Shown in pieces: positions 606 through 63,701 of a DNA stretch of 64,000 nucleotides. The notes under the pieces are model-generated. The model ran no database searches. It worked only from the letters and a program-made list of their open reading frames with translations, and was not told where the DNA came from. The stretch's first letter is position 1. The number at the start of each line of letters is the position of its first letter. Both the position numbers and the translations under genes were made by a program. The DNA is from Escherichia phage EJP2. The DNA is taken from sequence record OQ411014.1, one strand, 5' to 3'.

Positions 606-614
606 ATAAATTTT

Positions 615-643
615 TGAACATTTCAGAAAAAATGTGATATAAT
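615..643 (+). promoter_or_regulatory. sigma70-type promoter with extended -10 (TTGAAC N17 TGTGATATAAT), upstream of tRNA
   Basis: Conserved TGTGATATAATATAA block, one of 5 near-identical copies in window; followed by hairpin and tRNA. Confidence 0.5.
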
Positions 644-681: not shown

Positions 682-754
682 GCTTGAATAGCTCAGTAGG
701 TAGAGCAGCGTACTTGTAATACGAAGGTCGTGGGTTCAATTCCTGCTTCAAGCA
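682..754 (+). tRNA. tRNA-Thr (anticodon UGU)
   Basis: Acceptor GCTTGAA/TTCAAGC, D-arm GCTC-AGTAGGTA-GAGC, anticodon loop CTTGTAA, T-loop GGTTCAATTCC; CCA not encoded. Confidence 0.75.
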
Positions 755-8126: not shown

Positions 8127-8405
8127 ATGCATTTCGAAAAATTCAACGCAAACCGTAACACACGTATTGAAATGTTGTTTGAAACTCAAGATACTATCAG
8201 TATTTGTACTAAGAGTGGTGATGTTTACCATGAATGTACTATTGAGTGGGAACAAGGCCGAACACGTTCTGTTGAGTTTGACAACTACCATTTCAAACAA
8301 GGCGACCGCAAGATCTGGCCTGAACTGGTAGAAAGCATTGCATATGAAGATGAAGATAAAGAATCTTTTATCAAAGAAAATCCAGAAAATGATGAAGATT
8401 TTTGA
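8127..8405 (+). CDS. hypothetical protein (92 aa)
   Basis: ORF track; TAGGA RBS. Confidence 0.5.
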   Translation: MHFEKFNANRNTRIEMLFETQDTISICTKSGDVYHECTIEWEQGRTRSVEFDNYHFKQGDRKIWPELVESIAYEDEDKESFIKENPENDEDF

Positions 8406-8431
8406 GCATTTTGAAGAAAATGTGATATAAT
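8402..8431 (+). promoter_or_regulatory. extended -10 promoter (TTGAGC N18 TGTGATATAAT) upstream of tRNA pair
   Basis: Second copy of TGTGATATAATATAA block. Confidence 0.5.
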
Positions 8432-8485: not shown

Positions 8486-8576
<91 letters not shown>

Positions 8577-8689: not shown

Positions 8690-8764
8690 CGGGGTATAGC
8701 TTAATGGATAAAGCAGTAACCTTCTAAGTTATTGATCTAAGTTCGATTCTTAGTATCCCGACCA
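8690..8764 (+). tRNA. tRNA-Arg (anticodon UCU)
   Basis: Acceptor CGGGGTA/TATCCCG, anticodon stem GTAAC/GTTAT loop CTTCTAA, T-loop GTTCGATTC, encoded CCA. Confidence 0.75.
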
Positions 8765-11101: not shown

Positions 11102-11191
11102 AGAAGGTTGGCAGAGCGGCTAAATGCACTCGCCTACTAAGCGAGCACTCGCTCCGGCGAGTCGAGGGTTCGAATCCCCCACCTTCTGCCA
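11102..11191 (+). tRNA. type II tRNA with unusual anticodon loop (apparent anticodon ACU; identity uncertain)
   Basis: Acceptor AGAAGGT/ACCTTCT, T-loop GGTTCGAATCC, long variable arm, encoded CCA; anticodon stem CTCGC/GCGAG with loop CTACTAA. Confidence 0.6.
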
Positions 11192-12445: not shown

Positions 12446-12540
<95 letters not shown>

Positions 12541-12695: not shown

Positions 12696-12769
12696 GGCCC
12701 TTTAGCTCAGTTGGTTAGAGCAGAGAACTCATAATTCTTTGGTCACTGGTTCGAGTCCAGTAGGGGCCA
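12696..12769 (+). tRNA. tRNA-Met (anticodon CAU; could equally be a lysidine-modified tRNA-Ile)
   Basis: Acceptor GGCCCTT/AGGGGCC, D-arm AGCTCAGTTGGTTAGAGC, anticodon loop CTCATAA, T-loop GGTTCGAGTCC; CCA not encoded. Confidence 0.8.
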
Positions 12770-20905: not shown

Positions 20906-20910
20906 AAAAA

Positions 20911-20939
20911 TGAGACAAACTGGAAAATTGTGATATAAT
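20911..20939 (+). promoter_or_regulatory. extended -10 promoter (TGAGAC N~17 TGTGATATAAT)
   Basis: Third copy of TGTGATATAATATAA block; followed by ~95 nt leader with hairpin. Confidence 0.45.
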
Positions 20940-23834: not shown

Positions 23835-24170
23835 ATGATGTTAGAACTACTAGAAACAATCCTGTACGCAGCTAGAGCAGAACGATATGATAAACTCGAT
23901 GCACTAGCACCTAAAGTGTTTTATGGTCGAGAAGGTGATGCGATATTGTCCTTTACTATCATGACAGAAGAAAACTTTTCTATCATGATTAGGGCAACAC
24001 ACGTCATTGACTGTCGTTGTAAAAACTGGTCTGACGCAACATTGAAGTACGGTTACAAGGAAGATGAATTCTTCTTAGAATCACTCAAGCGTGAAATACA
24101 TTTTTCCTATGAAGAATATCTACTTGCACAAAAAATTTCAGAAGTTCTAAAAAGACTCGCATATAAATGA
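23835..24170 (+). CDS. FFQ-like family protein
   Basis: ORF track; motif YKEDEFFLESL. Confidence 0.55.
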   Translation: MMLELLETILYAARAERYDKLDALAPKVFYGREGDAILSFTIMTEENFSIMIRATHVIDCRCKNWSDATLKYGYKEDEFFLESLKREIHFSYEEYLLAQKISEVLKRLAYK

Positions 24171-24196
24171 GAAATTTAGGATAAATGTGATATAAT
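24168..24196 (+). promoter_or_regulatory. extended -10 promoter (TGAGAA N17 TGTGATATAAT)
   Basis: Fourth copy of TGTGATATAATATAA block; followed by ~140 nt leader with two hairpins. Confidence 0.45.
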
Positions 24197-24338
24197 ATAA
24201 TTATTAGGGACATTCGTCCCAACCGCCCTCACTGAAGCATGGTCAGACTCAGTGAGCACACTACGGGTGCTCTGACTGGTAAATGGAGGCTACCATAGAT
24301 GTAGCCTCCAATTTATCCTTAAACAAAAGGAGAGCAAA

Positions 24339-27786: not shown

Positions 27787-28929
27787 TTAATCTTTTCCAG
27801 CAATTACGATAGAACCAGCAAACCCATCGAGGGCTGTTAGTACTATATCATCTGCGTCATTAACCTGAACCTGAACAGTACAAACTGATGTACCATCATA
27901 TACAGTATATGACATATTGGATTTACCATGTTGTGCTTTGGTAATAGAAGCACTTGAGGAACCATCACCATTTGGTGTCCATGATAGAGCAGAACGGAAT
28001 GGAACACTTTGAGATGTTTTACCAATAATAACAACAACAGCGGCAGACGCAGCACTTTGTGTAACAGTAATGTTACCACTTGCATCTACGTCTACAGTAC
28101 TGAATTGTACTGCGTCATCTTGAGGTTCATGTAACTGAACAACCAGGTCCGCACCACGTCCGTGAATGATAGCAGGAACAGTAGCTTTGTACTGACCATC
28201 TGATTGTATTGCAAAATCAGCAGGAGCAATGTTGATTGAAGTTACATAGTCAGAATCAGCACCATCTGCATATACAGGGAATTGTACTTGAATTTCATTG
28301 TAATTCGGTGAAGTAATTGTTATAGTAGCTGTACCAGTTTGGGAGATAACCACTGGAGAAATACTGAATGTTCCATCTGGATTAACAGTACCTTCATATT
28401 CAGAACCATCTGGTAGAACAATTTTAACAACCATATCAGTAACGTCTAGAGCACCCGAACTAGAGGTGATAGCACCACTAATTTCAGTATCATTAACGTG
28501 AACTGGATTGATTACGATGTTGTCAATATCTGGTAGAGGGATAGTACATGTAGGTGTGTACATATCATAAAGCGTTTTACCAGTACTGAGAATTATTTTG
28601 TTCAATAGGAAACGAATGACGAAACCTTCCTTGGTCTTTTGATCATTGTAACCCCTTACAAAGAAGGTATTGCGTGGAATCTTAGCCAAGATTTGATCGT
28701 TATTTTCTAGATAATCCAGAACTCTACCCTCGGTGTCATAACCAGTGAGTAGTACTTTTTGATAAATTGTGTTTGTCGCAGGATCAATAAGGTCGAACAT
28801 TACATCAGAACGTTGTTTGTATATACGTAACATCTTTTTCTTTGTAAAGTCTCGCAGATATGCCCCATCAACTACAAATCCACAAACCCCATAAGGATAA
28901 TCCCCAACCCCAGCTATCGGTTTAGCCAT
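27787..28929 (-). CDS. Ig-like domain protein (possible virion decoration or adhesin)
   Basis: ORF track 27787..29025 trimmed to ATG (MAKPIAG) preceded by AAGGAG RBS; S/T/V/G-rich beta-sandwich-like repeats. Confidence 0.55.
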   Translation of the reverse strand: MAKPIAGVGDYPYGVCGFVVDGAYLRDFTKKKMLRIYKQRSDVMFDLIDPATNTIYQKVLLTGYDTEGRVLDYLENNDQILAKIPRNTFFVRGYNDQKTKEGFVIRFLLNKIILSTGKTLYDMYTPTCTIPLPDIDNIVINPVHVNDTEISGAITSSSGALDVTDMVVKIVLPDGSEYEGTVNPDGTFSISPVVISQTGTATITITSPNYNEIQVQFPVYADGADSDYVTSINIAPADFAIQSDGQYKATVPAIIHGRGADLVVQLHEPQDDAVQFSTVDVDASGNITVTQSAASAAVVVIIGKTSQSVPFRSALSWTPNGDGSSSASITKAQHGKSNMSYTVYDGTSVCTVQVQVNDADDIVLTALDGFAGSIVIAGKD

Positions 28930-29049
28930 AGATAAACTCCTTTTTTTGTTTTTCATTATGAACGTATTTACCCCTTGACATGTGATTATGCTTGTATTAT
29001 GATACATGCATTGATTGACGCACATGTAATAAAGAACATTAAATGTGTG

Positions 29050-32514: not shown

Positions 32515-32993
32515 TGAAAAACGTACAACAATACATTCAGAACTTCACCGCATATCCAGTATCAGTAATGTTCGGACATATCGATACACCTACTCCTAAG
32601 CAGAAGAAAGCGGAGAAACGTGTAGCAGAAATCTGTGAAGAACTGTATCGTTTTGATTGTACAGTACTATCAGATGTGCGAGCAGCATTCCGCGAGTTAG
32701 ATGTTCTTATCTCCTTGAGTGATGATAAGTTCCGCATCAAGCAAGTGCGTCTAACTCGTATGACTGGTCGTTTGGCATATTTTGTTGACAAAGCGGTTGT
32801 AATGCTCGATAATATGCACAAGAAAGACCAGCAACTTCAGCAGTACTGGCAACCGCTGTCAATGAAAGCTAAAGTACTGAAGGATGAAATCAAATCATTC
32901 CTTATCCAGTACGATACTTCAGTTGATAAGATTGTATTACTGTCTGAATTTGACAATGCATACAAAGAAGCCCAAGAGGAAGATAAGAAATGA
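32514..32993 (+). CDS. hypothetical protein (159 aa)
   Basis: ORF track. Confidence 0.55.
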   Translation: MKNVQQYIQNFTAYPVSVMFGHIDTPTPKQKKAEKRVAEICEELYRFDCTVLSDVRAAFRELDVLISLSDDKFRIKQVRLTRMTGRLAYFVDKAVVMLDNMHKKDQQLQQYWQPLSMKAKVLKDEIKSFLIQYDTSVDKIVLLSEFDNAYKEAQEEDKK

Positions 32994-33490
32994 CAACTGT
33001 TTTCGTGAGTAAAGAATTAGGAATTGCTATTACTGACTCACGAGCCACGTTTCAAGAGTCCAGGAAGTTTCTTGGGCTTTTTAACTTGACTCCATTACCA
33101 TCGTATAAAGTTGTGAATCAAAAGGCTTTGTATGTTCATGACCGTTTATTCTTAGCATGTGGAAGTGTAGATACTATTGATAAAGTATTGCAATATTTCA
33201 TCGACGGTACTAAGTTCAAGATAAACAAGAAAACTCCAAGCTGTGAGTGTCTTCTTCTTGGTAAAGAATACGGTGTACACTTGTACGTGTGGAATGGTAA
33301 GATTCATAAGAAGACTATCTTCTTGGCGTATAATTTTGTACACTTCATGGGGTCTGGTAGTTCTGCCCTACTCAGAAAGTACTACAAGACTTTAGAACGT
33401 AATACACCAGATGAAGTTATTGATATTTTCAAGACTGTACATTTGGATGATAGCTTCACTGACGATAACGTAAATTTATACAGAATCTAG
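32990..33490 (+). CDS. hypothetical protein (166 aa)
   Basis: ORF track. Confidence 0.55.
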   Translation: MTTVFVSKELGIAITDSRATFQESRKFLGLFNLTPLPSYKVVNQKALYVHDRLFLACGSVDTIDKVLQYFIDGTKFKINKKTPSCECLLLGKEYGVHLYVWNGKIHKKTIFLAYNFVHFMGSGSSALLRKYYKTLERNTPDEVIDIFKTVHLDDSFTDDNVNLYRI

Positions 33491-33519
33491 TTGACAGTCT
33501 AAAAGAGATATCATATAAT
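33491..33519 (+). promoter_or_regulatory. sigma70-type promoter TTGACA N17 TATAAT
   Basis: Canonical hexamers upstream of small ORF and sigma gene. Confidence 0.55.
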
Positions 33520-33549
33520 CATTGCATACCACAACGAGAGAGAAACAAA

Positions 33550-33696
33550 ATGAGTACATTCATCGTAGAATATGTTCTGACTGGTCAAAGCATCTGGCAG
33601 GTACAAATGGTAAAAGCATGTAATAAAGAGCAAGCCCAGAGCACGCTCAAGAAAATGATTTCTGGTGTAGTAACCACCAAAGCATACCCAGCATAA
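33550..33696 (+). CDS. small hypothetical protein (48 aa) upstream of sigma factor
   Basis: Uninterrupted frame found by hand; followed by terminator hairpin AATCCGC-TCTGT-GCGGATT plus T-run. Confidence 0.4.
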   Translation: MSTFIVEYVLTGQSIWQVQMVKACNKEQAQSTLKKMISGVVTTKAYPA

Positions 33697-33758
33697 TTTA
33701 GAGCTATAATGAATCCGCTCTGTGCGGATTCTTTTTTTTAATATCAAAGGAGAAAGTA

Positions 33759-34751
33759 ATGACTGTAAAACAACTCAATCTAGAATCTATTCAAGACGAT
33801 ATCATGGATGAATGTTTTGTAAATGAAAACAATACGTTCGAGCGTATTAGTGAACAGTCACATGACAGTACTGAAGAAGTAGAAGAAAGTACTGATGACG
33901 TAGGTTCTTTCAAGACTTACAACACATCTAGCGTTTTACCAGAAGGTGAGACGAATGAATCTATTATTCGTTTAATCCGTGACGGTATCAATGTGAAGCG
34001 TAACATTGACCTTATCGTACGTAACAACGTAGGCTTAGTATATAGCCAAGCACGTCAGTGTACTTGTAATATCCCATTCCAAGATAAAGCACAGTACGCT
34101 TTTGAAGGTCTAATGCGTGCAATCCATCGTTATGATGTGAATCAGAATATTCTTTTCAGTACTTACGCTACTGTGTCTATTCGCCAAACACTCTATAACT
34201 TTGGTAATGATGAAGTTCGTCTAATCAGTATTCCACGTCACTTGTCAGTGGATAACATCAAGATTCAGAACTACATTGAGAAGCATCGTTCTAAGTTCGG
34301 TCGTACCCCAAGTGAAGATGAAATCAGTACTGCTACTGGCATCAAGTTATCCGCAGTGAAACGTGTAGTGCAGTACATGAACAGTAAGCCAATGAGTTTC
34401 GATACTCCAATGGGTTCTGACAGTACTGAAAACGATATGAGCTTAGTGGATGTAATCCCAGGAACTTCCAATGATTACACACTAAGTGCAGATACAGTTC
34501 AGAAAGCACCACTAGATGTAATTGCATTGGTCATGTCTGAACTACCAGAAGAAGAGCAGTTGCTGATCAATAAGATTCACGGCTTGAATGGACATGAAGA
34601 AAGTACTTTTATTGCTCTAGAGACTGCTGGATTGGTAGATGCGAAGGGTAAGAAGCTAACTAACCGTTGCACTATTCATCGTCGTTACAATGCAATACTG
34701 GATAAGATTCGTAATATTCTAAAAGCACGTGACATTTCATTCGATGACTGA
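33759..34751 (+). CDS. RNA polymerase sigma factor, sigma70 family
   Basis: Region 2 match VGLVYSQARQ..FEGLMRAIHRYD..FSTYATVSIRQT and C-terminal region-4-like helix-turn-helix; AAGGAG RBS. Confidence 0.7.
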   Translation: MTVKQLNLESIQDDIMDECFVNENNTFERISEQSHDSTEEVEESTDDVGSFKTYNTSSVLPEGETNESIIRLIRDGINVKRNIDLIVRNNVGLVYSQARQCTCNIPFQDKAQYAFEGLMRAIHRYDVNQNILFSTYATVSIRQTLYNFGNDEVRLISIPRHLSVDNIKIQNYIEKHRSKFGRTPSEDEISTATGIKLSAVKRVVQYMNSKPMSFDTPMGSDSTENDMSLVDVIPGTSNDYTLSADTVQKAPLDVIALVMSELPEEEQLLINKIHGLNGHEESTFIALETAGLVDAKGKKLTNRCTIHRRYNAILDKIRNILKARDISFDD

Positions 34752-34911
34752 TATGATTCGTTACAAGGCAAACAAAGTACAAGGAACTGCTGTTGTAGTT
34801 TTCTTGTACTGGACTGAGAATCCGGTCTATGTTCTGGCAGAGAACAGTACTGTATCGCTGTCGGAGTTCATTGATATAGCAATTGAAGAATTCAAATCAT
34901 TAGAGGAATAA
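34744..34911 (+). CDS. small hypothetical protein (start uncertain)
   Basis: ORF track 34729..34911 (GTG); internal ATG chosen; weak RBS. Confidence 0.35.
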   Translation: MTDMIRYKANKVQGTAVVVFLYWTENPVYVLAENSTVSLSEFIDIAIEEFKSLEE

Positions 34912-35470: not shown

Positions 35471-35476
35471 AACAAA

Positions 35477-35512
35477 ATGCTTGACTTCGGTCGAGCATTC
35501 TTTTAATATAAT
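35477..35512 (+). promoter_or_regulatory. terminator-promoter module (hairpin containing -35 TTGACT, T-run, -10)
   Basis: ATGCTTGAC-TTCG-GTCGAGCAT hairpin then TTTT then TAATAT. Confidence 0.5.
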
Positions 35513-35549
35513 TGCATCAACTACACTACTACACTTGAGGATAACAATC

Positions 35550-37029: not shown

Positions 37030-37058
37030 TTAATGCTCACTTCGGTGAGCATTTTTTT
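37030..37058 (+). terminator. rho-independent terminator
   Basis: GCTCAC-TTCG-GTGAGC hairpin followed by TTTTTTTT. Confidence 0.6.
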
Positions 37059-37074
37059 TATTTTGTGATATAAT
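37045..37074 (+). promoter_or_regulatory. extended -10 promoter (GTGAGC N~16 TGTGATATAAT)
   Basis: Fifth copy of the TGTGATATAAT block; drives a ~580 nt ORF-free region. Confidence 0.45.
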
Positions 37075-47082: not shown

Positions 47083-47095
47083 CATCATAAAAGGG

Positions 47096-47124
47096 TTGAC
47101 TTCGGTCAGCCCTTTCTGTATTAT
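47096..47124 (+). promoter_or_regulatory. terminator-promoter module (GGGTTGACTTCGGTCAGCCC, TATTAT)
   Basis: -35 TTGACT in hairpin stem, 17 nt spacer, -10 TATTAT. Confidence 0.55.
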
Positions 47125-47151
47125 ACATACATCAACTGAGAGGATAATTAA

Positions 47152-48860: not shown

Positions 48861-50039
48861 TTATGGTAAATCAAATTCCGTATATGAATATTTGTATACA
48901 CCATCTGGTCCACGACCTGAGTATCGTAATTTACCAGAAGTAGTTATATATGCTGAAGTAATATTACTAGTACTGAATATGTTAAACACTGACTTCATAT
49001 CATTCACTGTACCGTTACCGAATGGTATCAGGTTAAGTTCATTGCCGTTGACACCAGTACTCAATCTTCCTGAAGAATTTGCTCCACAACCATATGCATT
49101 TGATGGGCTAAGAGCAACGTAACCAGTATTACTAGTATAATAACTTAGTAAACCAATAAAATTCTCTGTAGTGGCTATTTCAGTAAAGACTCTAATATTG
49201 ACAGAACTATTCACTCCATTACCTAAGTTTCCAGCATTCTGGCTTCCCGCAGCATATAGATGTGTTTTACCAGTACCGTCACTGTACAATATTGTGAATG
49301 CTGATTCAGTTAGACCAATATCAAAAACACTAAGACCTGGGTCTGGTAGTGGTACTTGTGTTAGCACATTTATTCTTGTATCTGGATGACCAATACCGAG
49401 TTGACCAAATGAGTTTGAACCTGAAACCCAAACACTTAAATCATTTTTTAATATCAGTACTGATGAATTAACAAATTCAACTTTTTGAACATCTGATGTA
49501 AGTTTTGAGAAAGTAGTTAGTGCAAGATAATTACCAGTTGCTAGTTGGCCTTGGTTATTAAAACCGCTTCTATAAAGATCACCATTGTTCATTAATATAT
49601 ATAATGCATATACACCAGCATGAACAGATGTTATTTGATTAAGATTCCCTGTACCTATACCAGCTTCAATAAATGGGGTACAATCAGTATATGATGTCAC
49701 AACTTCAGTAGATGATGTATTGCCAGTTTGAAAGCTACGGCGACCAGTATATAATAATTTTCCATCCATAGTTTTAATGATAACAAAACTTGTGTTTGTA
49801 CACCAAACATCTTGAACATCATCTCTGATTAAAGTCCACTCTAGCTTTTGTTCTGTTGGCTTTCCATCCCCATAGATATAATTATCAACTGTTCCTCCAC
49901 CGATACCATACAATCTGTTATCATCATATAATACCATAAATGCCGGACGAGACGATGCATAAGGTACTAATATTTTTGTAATTTCAGGTAATGAAGGTGC
50001 TTTATTACCATAATTAAGCATTCGTACAAAAGGTAACAT
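48861..50039 (-). CDS. RCC1-like repeat (beta-propeller) protein (392 aa)
   Basis: ORF track; GGAGA RBS on minus strand; repeated G-x-N-x-x-G-Q/N-L-G motifs (GFNNQGQLATG, GSNSFGQLGIG, GSQNAGNLGNG). Confidence 0.65.
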   Translation of the reverse strand: MLPFVRMLNYGNKAPSLPEITKILVPYASSRPAFMVLYDDNRLYGIGGGTVDNYIYGDGKPTEQKLEWTLIRDDVQDVWCTNTSFVIIKTMDGKLLYTGRRSFQTGNTSSTEVVTSYTDCTPFIEAGIGTGNLNQITSVHAGVYALYILMNNGDLYRSGFNNQGQLATGNYLALTTFSKLTSDVQKVEFVNSSVLILKNDLSVWVSGSNSFGQLGIGHPDTRINVLTQVPLPDPGLSVFDIGLTESAFTILYSDGTGKTHLYAAGSQNAGNLGNGVNSSVNIRVFTEIATTENFIGLLSYYTSNTGYVALSPSNAYGCGANSSGRLSTGVNGNELNLIPFGNGTVNDMKSVFNIFSTSNITSAYITTSGKLRYSGRGPDGVYKYSYTEFDLP

Positions 50040-53226: not shown

Positions 53227-53239
53227 TATTAGAAAGGGG

Positions 53240-53269
53240 TTGACTTCGGTCGGCCCTTTTTGTTATAAT
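53240..53269 (+). promoter_or_regulatory. terminator-promoter module (GGGGTTGACTTCGGTCGGCCC, TATAAT)
   Basis: -35 TTGACT in hairpin, T-run, -10 TATAAT. Confidence 0.55.
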
Positions 53270-53301
53270 CATTACATCGACAACCAATAGGAAATCTAAA
53301 A

Positions 53302-53964: not shown

Positions 53965-53974
53965 AATAAAAGGG

Positions 53975-54004
53975 TTGACTTCGGTCGGCCCTTTTTGCTA
54001 TAAT
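53975..54004 (+). promoter_or_regulatory. terminator-promoter module (GGGTTGACTTCGGTCGGCCC, TATAAT)
   Basis: Same architecture as 53240 copy. Confidence 0.55.
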
Positions 54005-54034
54005 CATTTCAACTTCTGATGAAAGGAAAATTAT

Positions 54035-54789: not shown

Positions 54790-54800
54790 TTTGTGAAATA

Positions 54801-54856
54801 AAAGGTTGACTTCGGTCAGCCTTTTTCGTATTATGTACTCATCGAAACGAAGGAGA
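54801..54856 (+). repeat. repeated ~55 bp promoter-leader cassette, copy 1 (hairpin with TTGACT, TATTAT, leader, AAGGAG)
   Basis: Near-identical to copies at 56641 and 56937. Confidence 0.6.
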
Positions 54857-56192: not shown

Positions 56193-56201
56193 AATAAAAG
56201 G

Positions 56202-56230
56202 TTGACTTCGGTCAGCCTTTTTGCTATTAT
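56202..56230 (+). promoter_or_regulatory. terminator-promoter module (GGTTGACTTCGGTCAGCC, TATTAT)
   Basis: -35 in hairpin, 17 nt spacer. Confidence 0.55.
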
Positions 56231-56366
56231 ATCAGTACTATCAATGTGAAAGAGTTCGATAAACATCTGAAGAAGAATGGCTTCGATACGAACAACTTTG
56301 CTATCAGTAGTATTACTGAAATCATGATTCAATACAACATTATTGTAGATACATTACGAGGGTAAA

Positions 56367-56633: not shown

Positions 56634-56640
56634 CGAAAAA

Positions 56641-56698
56641 AAGGTTGACTTCGGTCAGCCTTTTTCGTATTATGTACTCATCGAAACGAAGGAGATTA
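56641..56698 (+). repeat. repeated promoter-leader cassette, copy 2
   Basis: AAGGTTGACTTCGGTCAGCCTTTTTCGTATTATGTACTCATCGAAACGAAGGAGAT. Confidence 0.6.
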
Positions 56699-56936: not shown

Positions 56937-56990
56937 GGTTGACTTCGGTCAGCCTTTTTCGTATTATGTACTCATCGAAACGAAACGTAC
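56937..56990 (+). repeat. repeated promoter-leader cassette, copy 3
   Basis: Same cassette; explains identical spurious N-terminus MTSVSLFRIMYSSKR of track ORFs 54806 and 56939. Confidence 0.6.
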
Positions 56991-62570: not shown

Positions 62571-63701
62571 TTAAAATGGTAAATCTATTTGTTTGGTAAT
62601 CGTCATACCTAAAGGTATTGAACACATTGACATATTTTTCCCATTTAGATTGGAAGGCGGCTGTCCGTTCATCCATATATTGGTATCGTCATAGAATGTA
62701 CTCCACCACGTAGAACCACCTTCTATGTGAATATTTTGATTAAAATCAGCGAATTGGCATTCTTGAAAAACTTCAAAAAACGGAATAGATGATAAACTAC
62801 TACTAGTAAATGGTGTATATCCTGTTGCCATTAACTTATTCGTATCTGAATTTACTAAAAAGATAACATTACCTGCATTGTATGGTACATATTTGGGATA
62901 TAAATTACTCATATCACCAATAGGGAAGTTAATATTAAATATTTTACTATGCGTACCCGTTCCTGAAAGTGTAGTACCAGTTACGTATATTTTATTATCA
63001 GTTGTACCCATAATAAACCCAATACCAAACCCAGAACAAAATGTAATGTCGTATGAAACATTATCAAATAGTTGAACAAACGTAGTTACATCACCTGCTG
63101 GACTTTGTATTTGTAAACTATTGTTTGCACCTGCTCCCCAAACAGTTCCGTTACTTTTCACTTTGAATAAAGTATCTCCTATATAGTGACCATATATGCT
63201 ATCAACTTCAGTATCAAGTTCTGTCCATTGTGACACAAAGTTTTTATGCCCTAAACCTAAACACCCATTACGATTAAGCCCTCTACCGTACAATGTACCA
63301 TCATTCATCAATACAAATACTGTATATCCACATAACATTTTTTTAATTTGTGTAACGTCGATACCATTAAAATACCCACTCCAATCTGCATAACCTTGTT
63401 GCATTGTCGAAGAATTTGTAAATGCTTGTGTTGGCCCTGAACCATATATTTTACCACCTTTAATAATGACTGAAAACGATCCCAACCACACATCTTGAAC
63501 ATCCTGAGCAATTGTTTTCAATTCACCATATGCAGTTAAGGGAGTACTTTGCCCTGAACTATATGTTGAATCTTCTCCGTGTGCATATAATGTTCCATCT
63601 TGTGTTAGAATCATTTCTAAGTAAACAGCACTTACACTTTTCTTTATTTTATTAACTTCTATTTTATTTCCGTACTTCAACATCCTTGCAAAAGGTAACA
63701 T
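62571..63701 (-). CDS. RCC1-like repeat (beta-propeller) protein (376 aa), paralog of 48861..50039
   Basis: ORF track; shared N-terminus MLPFARMLKYGNK vs MLPFVRMLNYGNK; motif GLNRNGCLGLG; GGAGA RBS on minus strand. Confidence 0.65.
   Translation of the reverse strand: MLPFARMLKYGNKIEVNKIKKSVSAVYLEMILTQDGTLYAHGEDSTYSSGQSTPLTAYGELKTIAQDVQDVWLGSFSVIIKGGKIYGSGPTQAFTNSSTMQQGYADWSGYFNGIDVTQIKKMLCGYTVFVLMNDGTLYGRGLNRNGCLGLGHKNFVSQWTELDTEVDSIYGHYIGDTLFKVKSNGTVWGAGANNSLQIQSPAGDVTTFVQLFDNVSYDITFCSGFGIGFIMGTTDNKIYVTGTTLSGTGTHSKIFNINFPIGDMSNLYPKYVPYNAGNVIFLVNSDTNKLMATGYTPFTSSSLSSIPFFEVFQECQFADFNQNIHIEGGSTWWSTFYDDTNIWMNGQPPSNLNGKNMSMCSIPLGMTITKQIDLPF

Follow-up and report, generated by a model that had tools for sequence, protein, structure and literature searches.

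The sigma70-family gene of the Rak2-like jumbo phage EJP2: an early-region locus with a conserved hairpin and a candidate class of target promoters

Phage T4 draws on early promoters, on delayed-early read-through of terminators, on middle promoters served by MotA and AsiA, and on late promoters served by gp55 and gp33. The sigma factors of Bacillus phage SPO1 (gp28) and of phages phiEco32 and 7-11 are made early, from host-type promoters, and switch the host core polymerase to middle or late phage promoters; these factors have biochemical support, and the consensus sequences of their promoters are known. For jumbo phages without an RNA polymerase of their own, the possession of sigma genes is a recognised hallmark, and reviews state that the sigma homologues encoded by such phages likely redirect the host enzyme. 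In the Rak2-like group they are represented by GAP32_490, CBB_513, Munch_487, the 121Q-type genes and Hallingskeid CDS0173. For CBB and GAP32, RpoD-like early promoters, ‘divergent’ promoters before DNA-synthesis genes and T4-late-like ATAAATA promoters have been described, and the CBB paper notes a gp55-like factor and places the sigma gene in the early region (PMC5259590). Here, the sigma gene of Escherichia phage EJP2, a Rak2-like jumbo phage, is analysed within a stretch of 64,000 nucleotides (nt) of sequence record OQ411014.1, referred to below as the window, and its locus is compared with those of its relatives.

The EJP2 locus consists of a promoter, a 48-residue open reading frame (ORF), a hairpin followed by eight T residues (T8) and the sigma gene, in that order (Table 1). 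The 330-residue sigma protein is an exact match to GenBank WEM33492.1, ‘RNA polymerase sigma factor [Escherichia phage EJP2]’, on a sequence of 349,185 bp, and the small ORF encodes the protein EJP02_430 of the same phage (100% identity); a megablast search of the phage collection found no DNA near-identical to the locus. The small ORF, the terminator and the 330-residue ORF all lie where an initial annotation, made from the sequence alone, had placed them; its account did not include the perfect promoter upstream of the small ORF. The sigma gene is already known and annotated in GenBank and is ordinary for the Rak2-like group; as an object it adds nothing new. The gains of the present analysis are modest and concern a small-protein family, a covarying hairpin in a lineage-specific context, the divergence of sigma region 4 and a candidate class of middle promoters.

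On balance, and with only slightly more confidence than doubt, we read the locus as a short early transcription unit in which the sigma gene is expressed by read-through and the sigma protein serves a second class of promoters, termed class 2. The host sigma70 holoenzyme would start at the consensus promoter (33491–33519) soon after infection, giving a transcript of approximately 210 nt for the 48-residue protein. Most transcripts would end at the hairpin and its T8 tract and a fraction would continue into the sigma gene, with the hairpin setting the ratio of small-ORF to sigma transcripts. The sigma protein would build up to a limited level, possibly with a delay, with which the GTG start codon found in 16 of 20 related loci (ATG in EJP2) may agree. 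It would bind the host core RNA polymerase and steer it to promoters with a TATAAT −10 hexamer, a TGTGA extension and, 18 nt upstream in place of TTGACA, a box of the TG(A/G)G(A)CA type. The class-2 targets in Hallingskeid, which are tRNA genes and operons of replication and nucleotide metabolism, would be middle-type genes; for late genes a separate T4 gp55-like factor would act, as the literature proposes. That the phage sigma redirects host RNA polymerase is the accepted, if putative, reading for this phage group.

The sigma protein

The 330-residue product belongs to the sigma70 family: it has regions 2 and 3, and its C-terminal domain is remodelled. Region 2 (Pfam Sigma70_r2, PF04542) was assigned to residues 87–148 with 36.3 bits against a curated cut-off of 24 (E = 4.8e-9), and region 3 (Sigma70_r3, PF04539) to residues 168–236 with 34.2 bits against a cut-off of 25.3 (E = 2.8e-8). 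Region 2 was found in all 21 homologues and contains two motifs, CTCNIPFQDK and FSTYAT, that are invariant in the family alignment. PHROG 351 (‘RNA polymerase sigma factor’) matches across residues 1–329 (8e-51), the NCBIfam model RpoD_Cterm aligns to residues 85–286 (6.7e-27), and chains of SigA, SigB, RpoD and RpoS in the Protein Data Bank (PDB) match with E values down to 2e-16.

Orthology to RpoD or RpoS was considered and rejected: RpoD_Cterm scored 94.6 bits against a cut-off of 354 and RpoS 75.4 bits against 378.7, and because the NCBIfam scores all lie far below their cut-offs the protein is not an orthologue of either. The label ‘sigma factor D’, used in GenBank and in a paper, should not be taken as orthology. 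Within the phage collection, the best match at the protein level is in Erwinia phage Hallingskeid (60% identity), and the remaining matches, at 42% or less, are in Munch/7t3, GAP32, CBB, Serratia BF, Yersinia fHe-Yen9 and 121Q-type phages, with genomes of approximately 350 kb; 71 phage records, all of about this size, cover at least 80% of the protein. The EJP2 protein resembles the described Rak2-like sigmas in its PHROG family, size and full-length identity (36–60%), and its gene, like theirs, occupies the early region and the early strand. Nothing essential differs: EJP2 has an ATG start codon where most relatives have GTG and the longest T-run after the hairpin among the compared loci, and the upstream gene context varies by lineage.

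Among bacterial proteins, the group 2 and 3 sigmas (RpoS, SigB, SigF and FliA) give the best profile and structure matches and likewise have regions 2 and 3 and no long region 1.1; as in group 3 sigmas, there is no Trp dyad in region 2.3/2.4 of the phage protein. It differs from these bacterial proteins in its scores far under the NCBIfam cut-offs, in a region 4.2 that is unrecognisable by sequence and carries a predicted β-hairpin insertion, and in the family’s own motifs, which comprise CTCNIPFQDK and an N-terminal LNLESIxEEVLDECF.

The initial annotation had assigned a region 2 and a region-4-like C terminus and named the absence of both from a profile alignment as its refutation. The first assignment holds, with region 3 added above the Pfam thresholds, whereas no profile finds region 4 in the EJP2 protein or in 20 family members, which leaves half of that test against the annotation; a sigma4 domain is supported by the predicted structure only. 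Pfam Sigma70_r4 had no match in the EJP2 protein, in the 20 homologues or in 14 isolated C termini. A profile of the C terminus reached E ~0.9 at best against the PDB, limited to the 4.1 part, and hhalign gave a probability of 0.65% against the C terminus of Escherichia coli sigma70; the RpoD_Cterm alignment ends at model position 201 of 238, past region 4.1, and a HMMER alignment to Thermus aquaticus SigA extends to residue 305. An AlphaFold (AF2) model computed from 20 family members, with a mean predicted local distance difference test score of 65 (68–83 over residues 250–325), contains helices at residues 251–261, 264–274 and 284–290, a β-hairpin at 292–300 and a long helix at 303–323. In whole-chain comparisons with Foldseek, 266–280 columns were aligned to sigmaS and SigA chains of approximately 277–320 residues. 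The C terminus is accordingly predicted by modelling to be a sigma4-like helical domain with a β-hairpin inserted in the turn of the helix-turn-helix.

With residues numbered as in E. coli sigma70, the aligned equivalents of Y430, R436 and Q437 are retained in the phage protein, those of W433 and W434 are V and S, and in the presumed recognition helix the positions of E585, R586, R588 and Q589 are all altered. The retained −10 residues and the altered recognition helix together fit a TATAAT-like −10 element combined with a −35 element other than TTGACA.

Class-2 promoters as candidate targets

The window is an early region packed with host-type consensus promoters on one strand: it contains 26 TTGACA-N16-18-TAnnnT sites, all on the plus strand, where 5.6 are expected, and approximately 137 small plus-strand ORFs. 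It also contains five copies of TGTGATATAAT with a TGAGCA-like box 18 nt upstream of the −10 hexamer, again all on the plus strand, against an expectation of 0.16 (Table 1). The statement of the initial annotation that the window holds no candidate sigma-specific promoter motif is contradicted by these copies, two of which precede tRNA genes.

The same type of promoter recurs in relatives. In Hallingskeid, for which three 50-kb segments were counted (1–50, 100–150 and 150–200 kb), tTTGGGAta-N10-aaaaTGTGATATAATa was seen 17 times in intergenic regions of the 100–200 kb interval, always on the gene strand. These copies precede the genes for SSB (two copies), primase, DNA polymerase, topoisomerase II and an exonuclease, a DHFR–RNase H–Dda operon and tRNA genes. 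Class-1 promoters, those of the TTGACA type, number 16, 5 and 0 on the gene strand of the three successive segments, and gene-strand copies of TATAAATA number 0, 2 and 5; class 1 keeps to the early region and TATAAATA to the structural region. A class-2 promoter also precedes the SSB gene in Munch and 121Q. As a target of the phage sigma, class 2 is the strongest candidate, a putative link drawn from sequence comparison.

Other candidate motifs gave no signal. TGAAACG, the ‘divergent −35’ of CBB and GAP32, is not enriched in the window (13 copies against 8.7 expected); all copies are intragenic, no copy stands near a gene start with a −10 at a suitable distance, and the motif is not evident in the Hallingskeid replication region. 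TTGGGA-N16-20-TAnnnT is likewise not enriched in the window, the EJP2 box being TGAGCA or TGAGACA and not TGGGA.

The most serious alternative, which we consider possible though not probable, is that class 2 comprises strong extended −10 promoters for host sigma70, perhaps with a phage activator resembling T4 MotA/AsiA, and that the phage sigma serves otherwise, by replacing an inactivated host sigma70 or by reading a motif absent from the window. Class 2 has a perfect extended −10 (TGnTATAAT), and its GACA-containing upstream box, GGGACA, matches TTGACA at four of six positions with a 16-nt spacer, so that host sigma70 could use these promoters unaided; AsiA-like proteins have also been reported in the literature for some phages of the group. 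The upstream box is, moreover, nearly the same across lineages in which the sigma proteins are 36–42% identical (SSB, 81–91%) and shows no co-variation with the sigma4 helix; with a constant box and a fast-evolving sigma, no co-variation of protein and motif supports their pairing. Use by host sigma70 is opposed by the partition of classes 1 and 2 along the Hallingskeid genome, which argues for different recognition, by the retention in the phage sigma of residues for a TATAAT-like −10 beside an altered sigma4, and by the finding that no other over-represented promoter-like motif was seen.

The extended −10, the host-like box and its constancy thus weigh against the favoured assignment of class 2 to the phage sigma. 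So do the replacement of the tryptophan pair by V and S, with which unaided promoter melting is not assured, the failure of every profile tried, in four sequence-based approaches, to detect region 4, and a literature search that found no biochemical data for any sigma of this phage group. With respect to read-through, 121Q-like phages have no hairpin before the sigma gene, and the hairpin is therefore not essential for sigma expression across the whole group.

If the phage sigma does serve class 2, EJP2 would resemble SPO1, phiEco32 and 7-11 in the proposed early synthesis of a factor that redirects the core polymerase, with the difference that the promoters of the EJP2 protein are candidates predicted from sequence. 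The likeness to T4 would lie in three promoter classes partitioned along the genome, a middle class with a sigma70-type −10 and a different upstream box, TATAAATA-type sites near structural genes, and some genes that are reached only through terminators. T4, however, remodels host sigma70 for its middle genes and has no RpoD-like sigma, whereas in EJP2 the candidate for the middle factor is a complete protein of the sigma70 family. The comparison yields a testable pairing of the EJP2 sigma with TG(A/G)G(A)CA-18-TATAAT promoters carrying TGTGATATAAT, for which the tRNA-Thr and tRNA-Ser promoters are short natural templates in an E. coli phage.

Downstream of the fourth class-2 promoter in Table 1 lies an ORF-less segment of 117 nt (24204–24320) with a minimum free energy of −43.8 kcal/mol (z = −4.1; none of 200 shuffled sequences was as stable) and a long hairpin at its end. 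This segment, which matched no Rfam family, is a candidate small RNA. The class-2 promoters with hexamers at 20934 and 37069 likewise face ORF-poor stretches.

Transcription into the sigma gene

The hairpin between the small ORF and the sigma gene, GAATCCGC-TCTGT-GCGGATTC, has an 8-bp stem with five G–C pairs, a 5-nt loop and a free energy of −12.3 kcal/mol, and its G+C-rich stem stands directly before the U-run, as in an intrinsic terminator. A terminator scan of the region returned three sites against 1.7 expected, which by itself is not above chance. The locus was also viewed across relatives: 20 loci in group A (EJP2, Hallingskeid and six metagenomic relatives), group B (four Munch-like loci) and group C (GAP32, CBB, BF, Yen9 and others), together with group D, Asteriusvirus vB_Ec-M-J. 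A hairpin occupies the same position in 19 of the 20 loci with differing sequences, and double compensatory changes occur at seven of the eight stem pairs (11 loci of groups A and B); the conserved position and the compensatory changes indicate that the structure is under selection.

In EJP2, 27 nt separate the end of the hairpin from the ATG of the sigma gene, and 19 nt separate the T-run from it. No sigma70-type promoter was found between the hairpin and the start codon, and 19 nt is too short for one; read-through from the consensus promoter upstream of the small ORF, which has homologues at the same place in relatives, is thus the likeliest and simplest route.

It is unlikely that the sigma gene has instead a promoter of its own that overlaps an efficient terminator. 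Such a promoter would use the TATAAT at 33705–33710 and start at approximately 33716–33718, inside the 5′ arm, so that the hairpin could not form in its transcripts, which would extend into the sigma gene. The perfect hexamer does adjoin the stem, a full TTGACA-17-TATTAT promoter ends 2 nt before the homologous hairpin in Munch-like phages, which have no small ORF and in which the start is predicted in the stem, and compact overlapping terminator/promoter cassettes occur eight times in the window. The EJP2 hexamer, however, lacks both a −35 box at 16–18 nt and a TG extension, the seven other group A loci do not conserve it, and chance copies of TATAAT are common at 63% A+T. Read-through past the hairpin remains the preferred account of sigma transcription in EJP2.

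The surroundings of the gene vary from lineage to lineage. Group A has an early promoter (often TTGACAGTACTG), the 48-residue ORF, a hairpin with a T-run, approximately 20 nt containing GGAG, and the sigma gene. In group B, the TTGACA-17-TATTAT promoter is followed by the hairpin ATGCCAGC...GCTGGCAT, with the predicted start site within its 5′ arm, then by a T-run and the sigma gene. Group C has a 49-residue homologue of the small ORF, a strong terminator whose hairpin lies 19–27 nt from the stop codon of that homologue, a conserved segment of approximately 45 nt and a GTG-initiated sigma gene; inspected by eye, the conserved segment in GAP32-like loci contains a TTGGnn box and no consistently spaced −10. 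In group D, only 22 nt lie between a 166-residue gene and the sigma gene, with no promoter, small ORF or hairpin. The comparison of the four groups shows that the small ORF is not required for sigma function and that the arrangement is lineage-specific, not a fixed regulatory device. Expression of the sigma gene is set up differently from lineage to lineage, with a hairpin in front of the gene, with a small gene and a hairpin, or with nothing between, which matters for the engineering and timing of these phages.

In six of eight GAP32-like loci (L003, L005 and L008–L011, at about 2520–2750), an Xre-type helix-turn-helix gene overlaps the small-ORF homologue at ATGA; the overlap is not found in Serratia BF and Yersinia fHe-Yen9. 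Where present, it suggests that a DNA-binding regulator and the small protein, encoded just ahead of the sigma gene, are translationally coupled.

The 48-residue small protein

The small ORF is a real gene under purifying selection. It has exactly 48 codons in all seven group A sequences compared, its alignment has 30 variable columns at first, 30 at second and 46 at third codon positions, and the ratio of non-synonymous to synonymous differences (pN/pS) is 0.18–0.61, with synonymous sites near saturation. A profile search with the protein returned 26 clusters, nearly all of 48–49 residues, confined to the Rak2-like group and containing no Pfam domain. Beyond this family, a HMMER scan of 1.84 billion representatives gave only spurious repeat proteins of 600–1000 residues, rejected as repeat artefacts, and tblastn gave weak matches to helicases of Pseudomonas N4-like phages (E ~4e-3 to 2e-2). 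The structure model of the protein is confident, with a predicted β-β-α-β fold.

That the protein serves specifically to regulate the sigma or host RNA polymerase (as an anti-sigma factor, a co-factor or a T7 Gp2-like inhibitor), being made first to time the switch, seems doubtful. Its gene is missing in Munch-like and 121Q-like phages, both of which retain the sigma gene, and it is therefore not an obligate sigma partner. An equally speculative proposal is that the small gene, a leaky hairpin and the sigma gene form a module for dosage and timing, in which the 48-residue protein would bind, like T7 Gp2, to host RNA polymerase or to sigma70 and help the phage sigma, with its remodelled sigma4 and without a Trp dyad, to take the core at the TGGGACA-N11-TGTGATATAAT middle class.

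It is very improbable that 33526–33739 attenuates the sigma gene in the classical way, as a small RNA without coding function or through a leader peptide whose translation alone matters: the unit between promoter and terminator is short, and the small-ORF stop codon lies 14 nt before the hairpin (15 nt or less in group A), so that a terminating ribosome could mask the 5′ arm, but the amino-acid sequence and the 48-codon length are conserved, variable columns are most numerous at third codon positions and pN/pS is well below 1, the structure model is confident, no Rfam family matched the locus, folding gave the terminator hairpin and a weak pairing of the U-run with the Shine–Dalgarno sequence and no alternative antiterminator, hence not the mutually exclusive structures under leader translation of such attenuators, and the distance from stop codon to hairpin is larger in group C, while group B keeps the hairpin without the ORF. 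The idea in the initial annotation that the ORF regulates or attenuates sigma expression could not be shown, the ORF being a conserved protein gene rather than a leader peptide; a weaker idea survives, in which the conserved hairpin restricts how much transcription reaches the sigma gene.

By eye, the 5′ leader of the small ORF in some group A relatives contains an inverted repeat that pairs the Shine–Dalgarno sequence with an upstream anti-Shine–Dalgarno sequence (approximately L013 2265–2300, L015 2265–2300, L018 2270–2305 and L019 2185–2220). The pairs, CCTCTT/AAGAGG, TCTCTC/GAGAGG and CCTTTC/GAGAGG, differ in sequence between loci, and the EJP2 leader has no such repeat.

Table 1 Features of the sigma locus and class-2 promoters in the EJP2 window
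Feature	Position	Strand	Remarks
Class-2 promoter, TTGAAC-18-TATAAT with ATGTGATATAATA	614..643	+	−10 hexamer from 638; upstream of tRNA-Thr (682–754)
Class-2 promoter, TTGAGC-18-TATAAT	8402..8431	+	−10 hexamer from 8426; upstream of tRNA-Ser (8487–8576) and tRNA-Arg (8690–8764)
Class-2 promoter, ATGAGA-18-TATAAT (TTGTGATATAATA)	20910..20939	+	−10 hexamer from 20934; before an ORF-poor gap
Class-2 promoter, ATGAGA-18-TATAAT	24167..24196	+	−10 hexamer from 24191; before a structured ORF-less stretch
Host-sigma70-type early promoter, TTGACA-17-TATAAT	33491..33519	+	12/12 consensus; directly upstream of the small ORF
Small gene EJP02_430, 48 residues	33550..33696	+	Conserved protein; predicted β-β-α-β fold
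TATAAT hexamer adjoining the hairpin	33705..33710	+	Doubtful second promoter; read from sequence
Intrinsic-terminator-like hairpin and T8	33711..33739	+	Stem-loop 33711–33731; T8 33732–33739
GGAG ribosome-binding site of the sigma gene	33749..33752	+	Identical throughout the group A alignment
Sigma70-family sigma factor gene, 330 residues	33759..34751	+	Contains FSTYATVSIRQT; WEM33492.1
Sigma region 2, residues 87–148	34017..34202	+	Pfam PF04542; motifs CTCNIPFQDK and FSTYAT
Sigma region 3, residues 168–236	34260..34466	+	Pfam PF04539
Divergent sigma4-like C-terminal domain, residues 250–325	34506..34733	+	Predicted; AF2 model, Foldseek, HMMER
52-residue ORF	34753..34911	+	Starts 1 nt past the sigma stop codon
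Class-2 promoter, GTGAGC-18-TATAAT (TTGTGATATAATT)	37045..37074	+	−10 hexamer from 37069; immediately past a terminator

Neighbouring genes and other features of the window

The 52-residue ORF that follows the sigma gene is probably co-transcribed with it and is 24–27% identical to the ORF at the same position in Hallingskeid. On the other side, a 166-residue gene (32990–33490; PHROG 24804) stands directly upstream of the sigma unit in groups A, B and D, and it accompanies the sigma gene more widely than the 48-residue ORF does. The protein has an N-terminal MTT and a conserved C terminus, DDN(V/I)N(L/V)YR(I/F); it gave a faint PHROG match to HslV peptidase (E = 0.006) and a non-significant PDB match to the anti-sigma factor NepR (E = 0.52).

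The palindrome CAGTACTG occurs 84 times in the 64 kb against 0.7 expected, an approximately 120-fold excess, with copies on average 743 bp apart. The enrichment rises stepwise, from GTAC (659 against 215 expected) through AGTACT (240 against 21) to the full palindrome. Copies lie both within genes (codon phases 4/36/26) and between them, for example at 139, 2969, 18714, 29054, 33866, 34325, 34421 and 50090 and in loci L001 and L013–L024, and some overlap early promoters as TTGACAGTACTG. The three Hallingskeid segments contain 91, 56 and 32 copies, and the excess is present in all four lineages, at approximately 100-fold in group A and 20–30-fold in groups B and C; no mention of it was found in the literature. 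The palindrome may be where a phage protein binds, nicks or modifies the DNA.

Six tRNA genes lie in the window (682–754, 8487–8576, 8690–8764, 11102–11191, 12451–12540 and 12696–12769). The tRNA-Ser at 11102–11191 has the unusual anticodon ACT, which would read AGT, and in codon phase 2 (26 sites) CAGTACTG encodes AGT-ACT; the phage may supply a tRNA for a codon forced by the palindrome.

The eight composite terminator/promoter cassettes have the form AAAGG(G)TTGACTTCGGTCAGCC(C)TTTTT followed by TATTAT or TATAAT, that is, a hairpin with a UUCG tetraloop, a −35 TTGACT in its 5′ arm and a −10 right after the T-run. They are found at 35476–35515, 47090–47125, 53233–53270, 53970–54005, 54800–54835, 56196–56231, 56639–56674 and 56937–56970, and the same cassette stands downstream of the sigma gene in Asteriusvirus vB_Ec-M-J (L027, 1676–1702).

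Three large ORFs are encoded on the minus strand of this plus-strand early region. The ORF at 27787–29025 has no Pfam match; those at 48861–50039 and 62571–63701 encode RCC1-like repeat proteins, of which Hallingskeid has eight genes in tandem.

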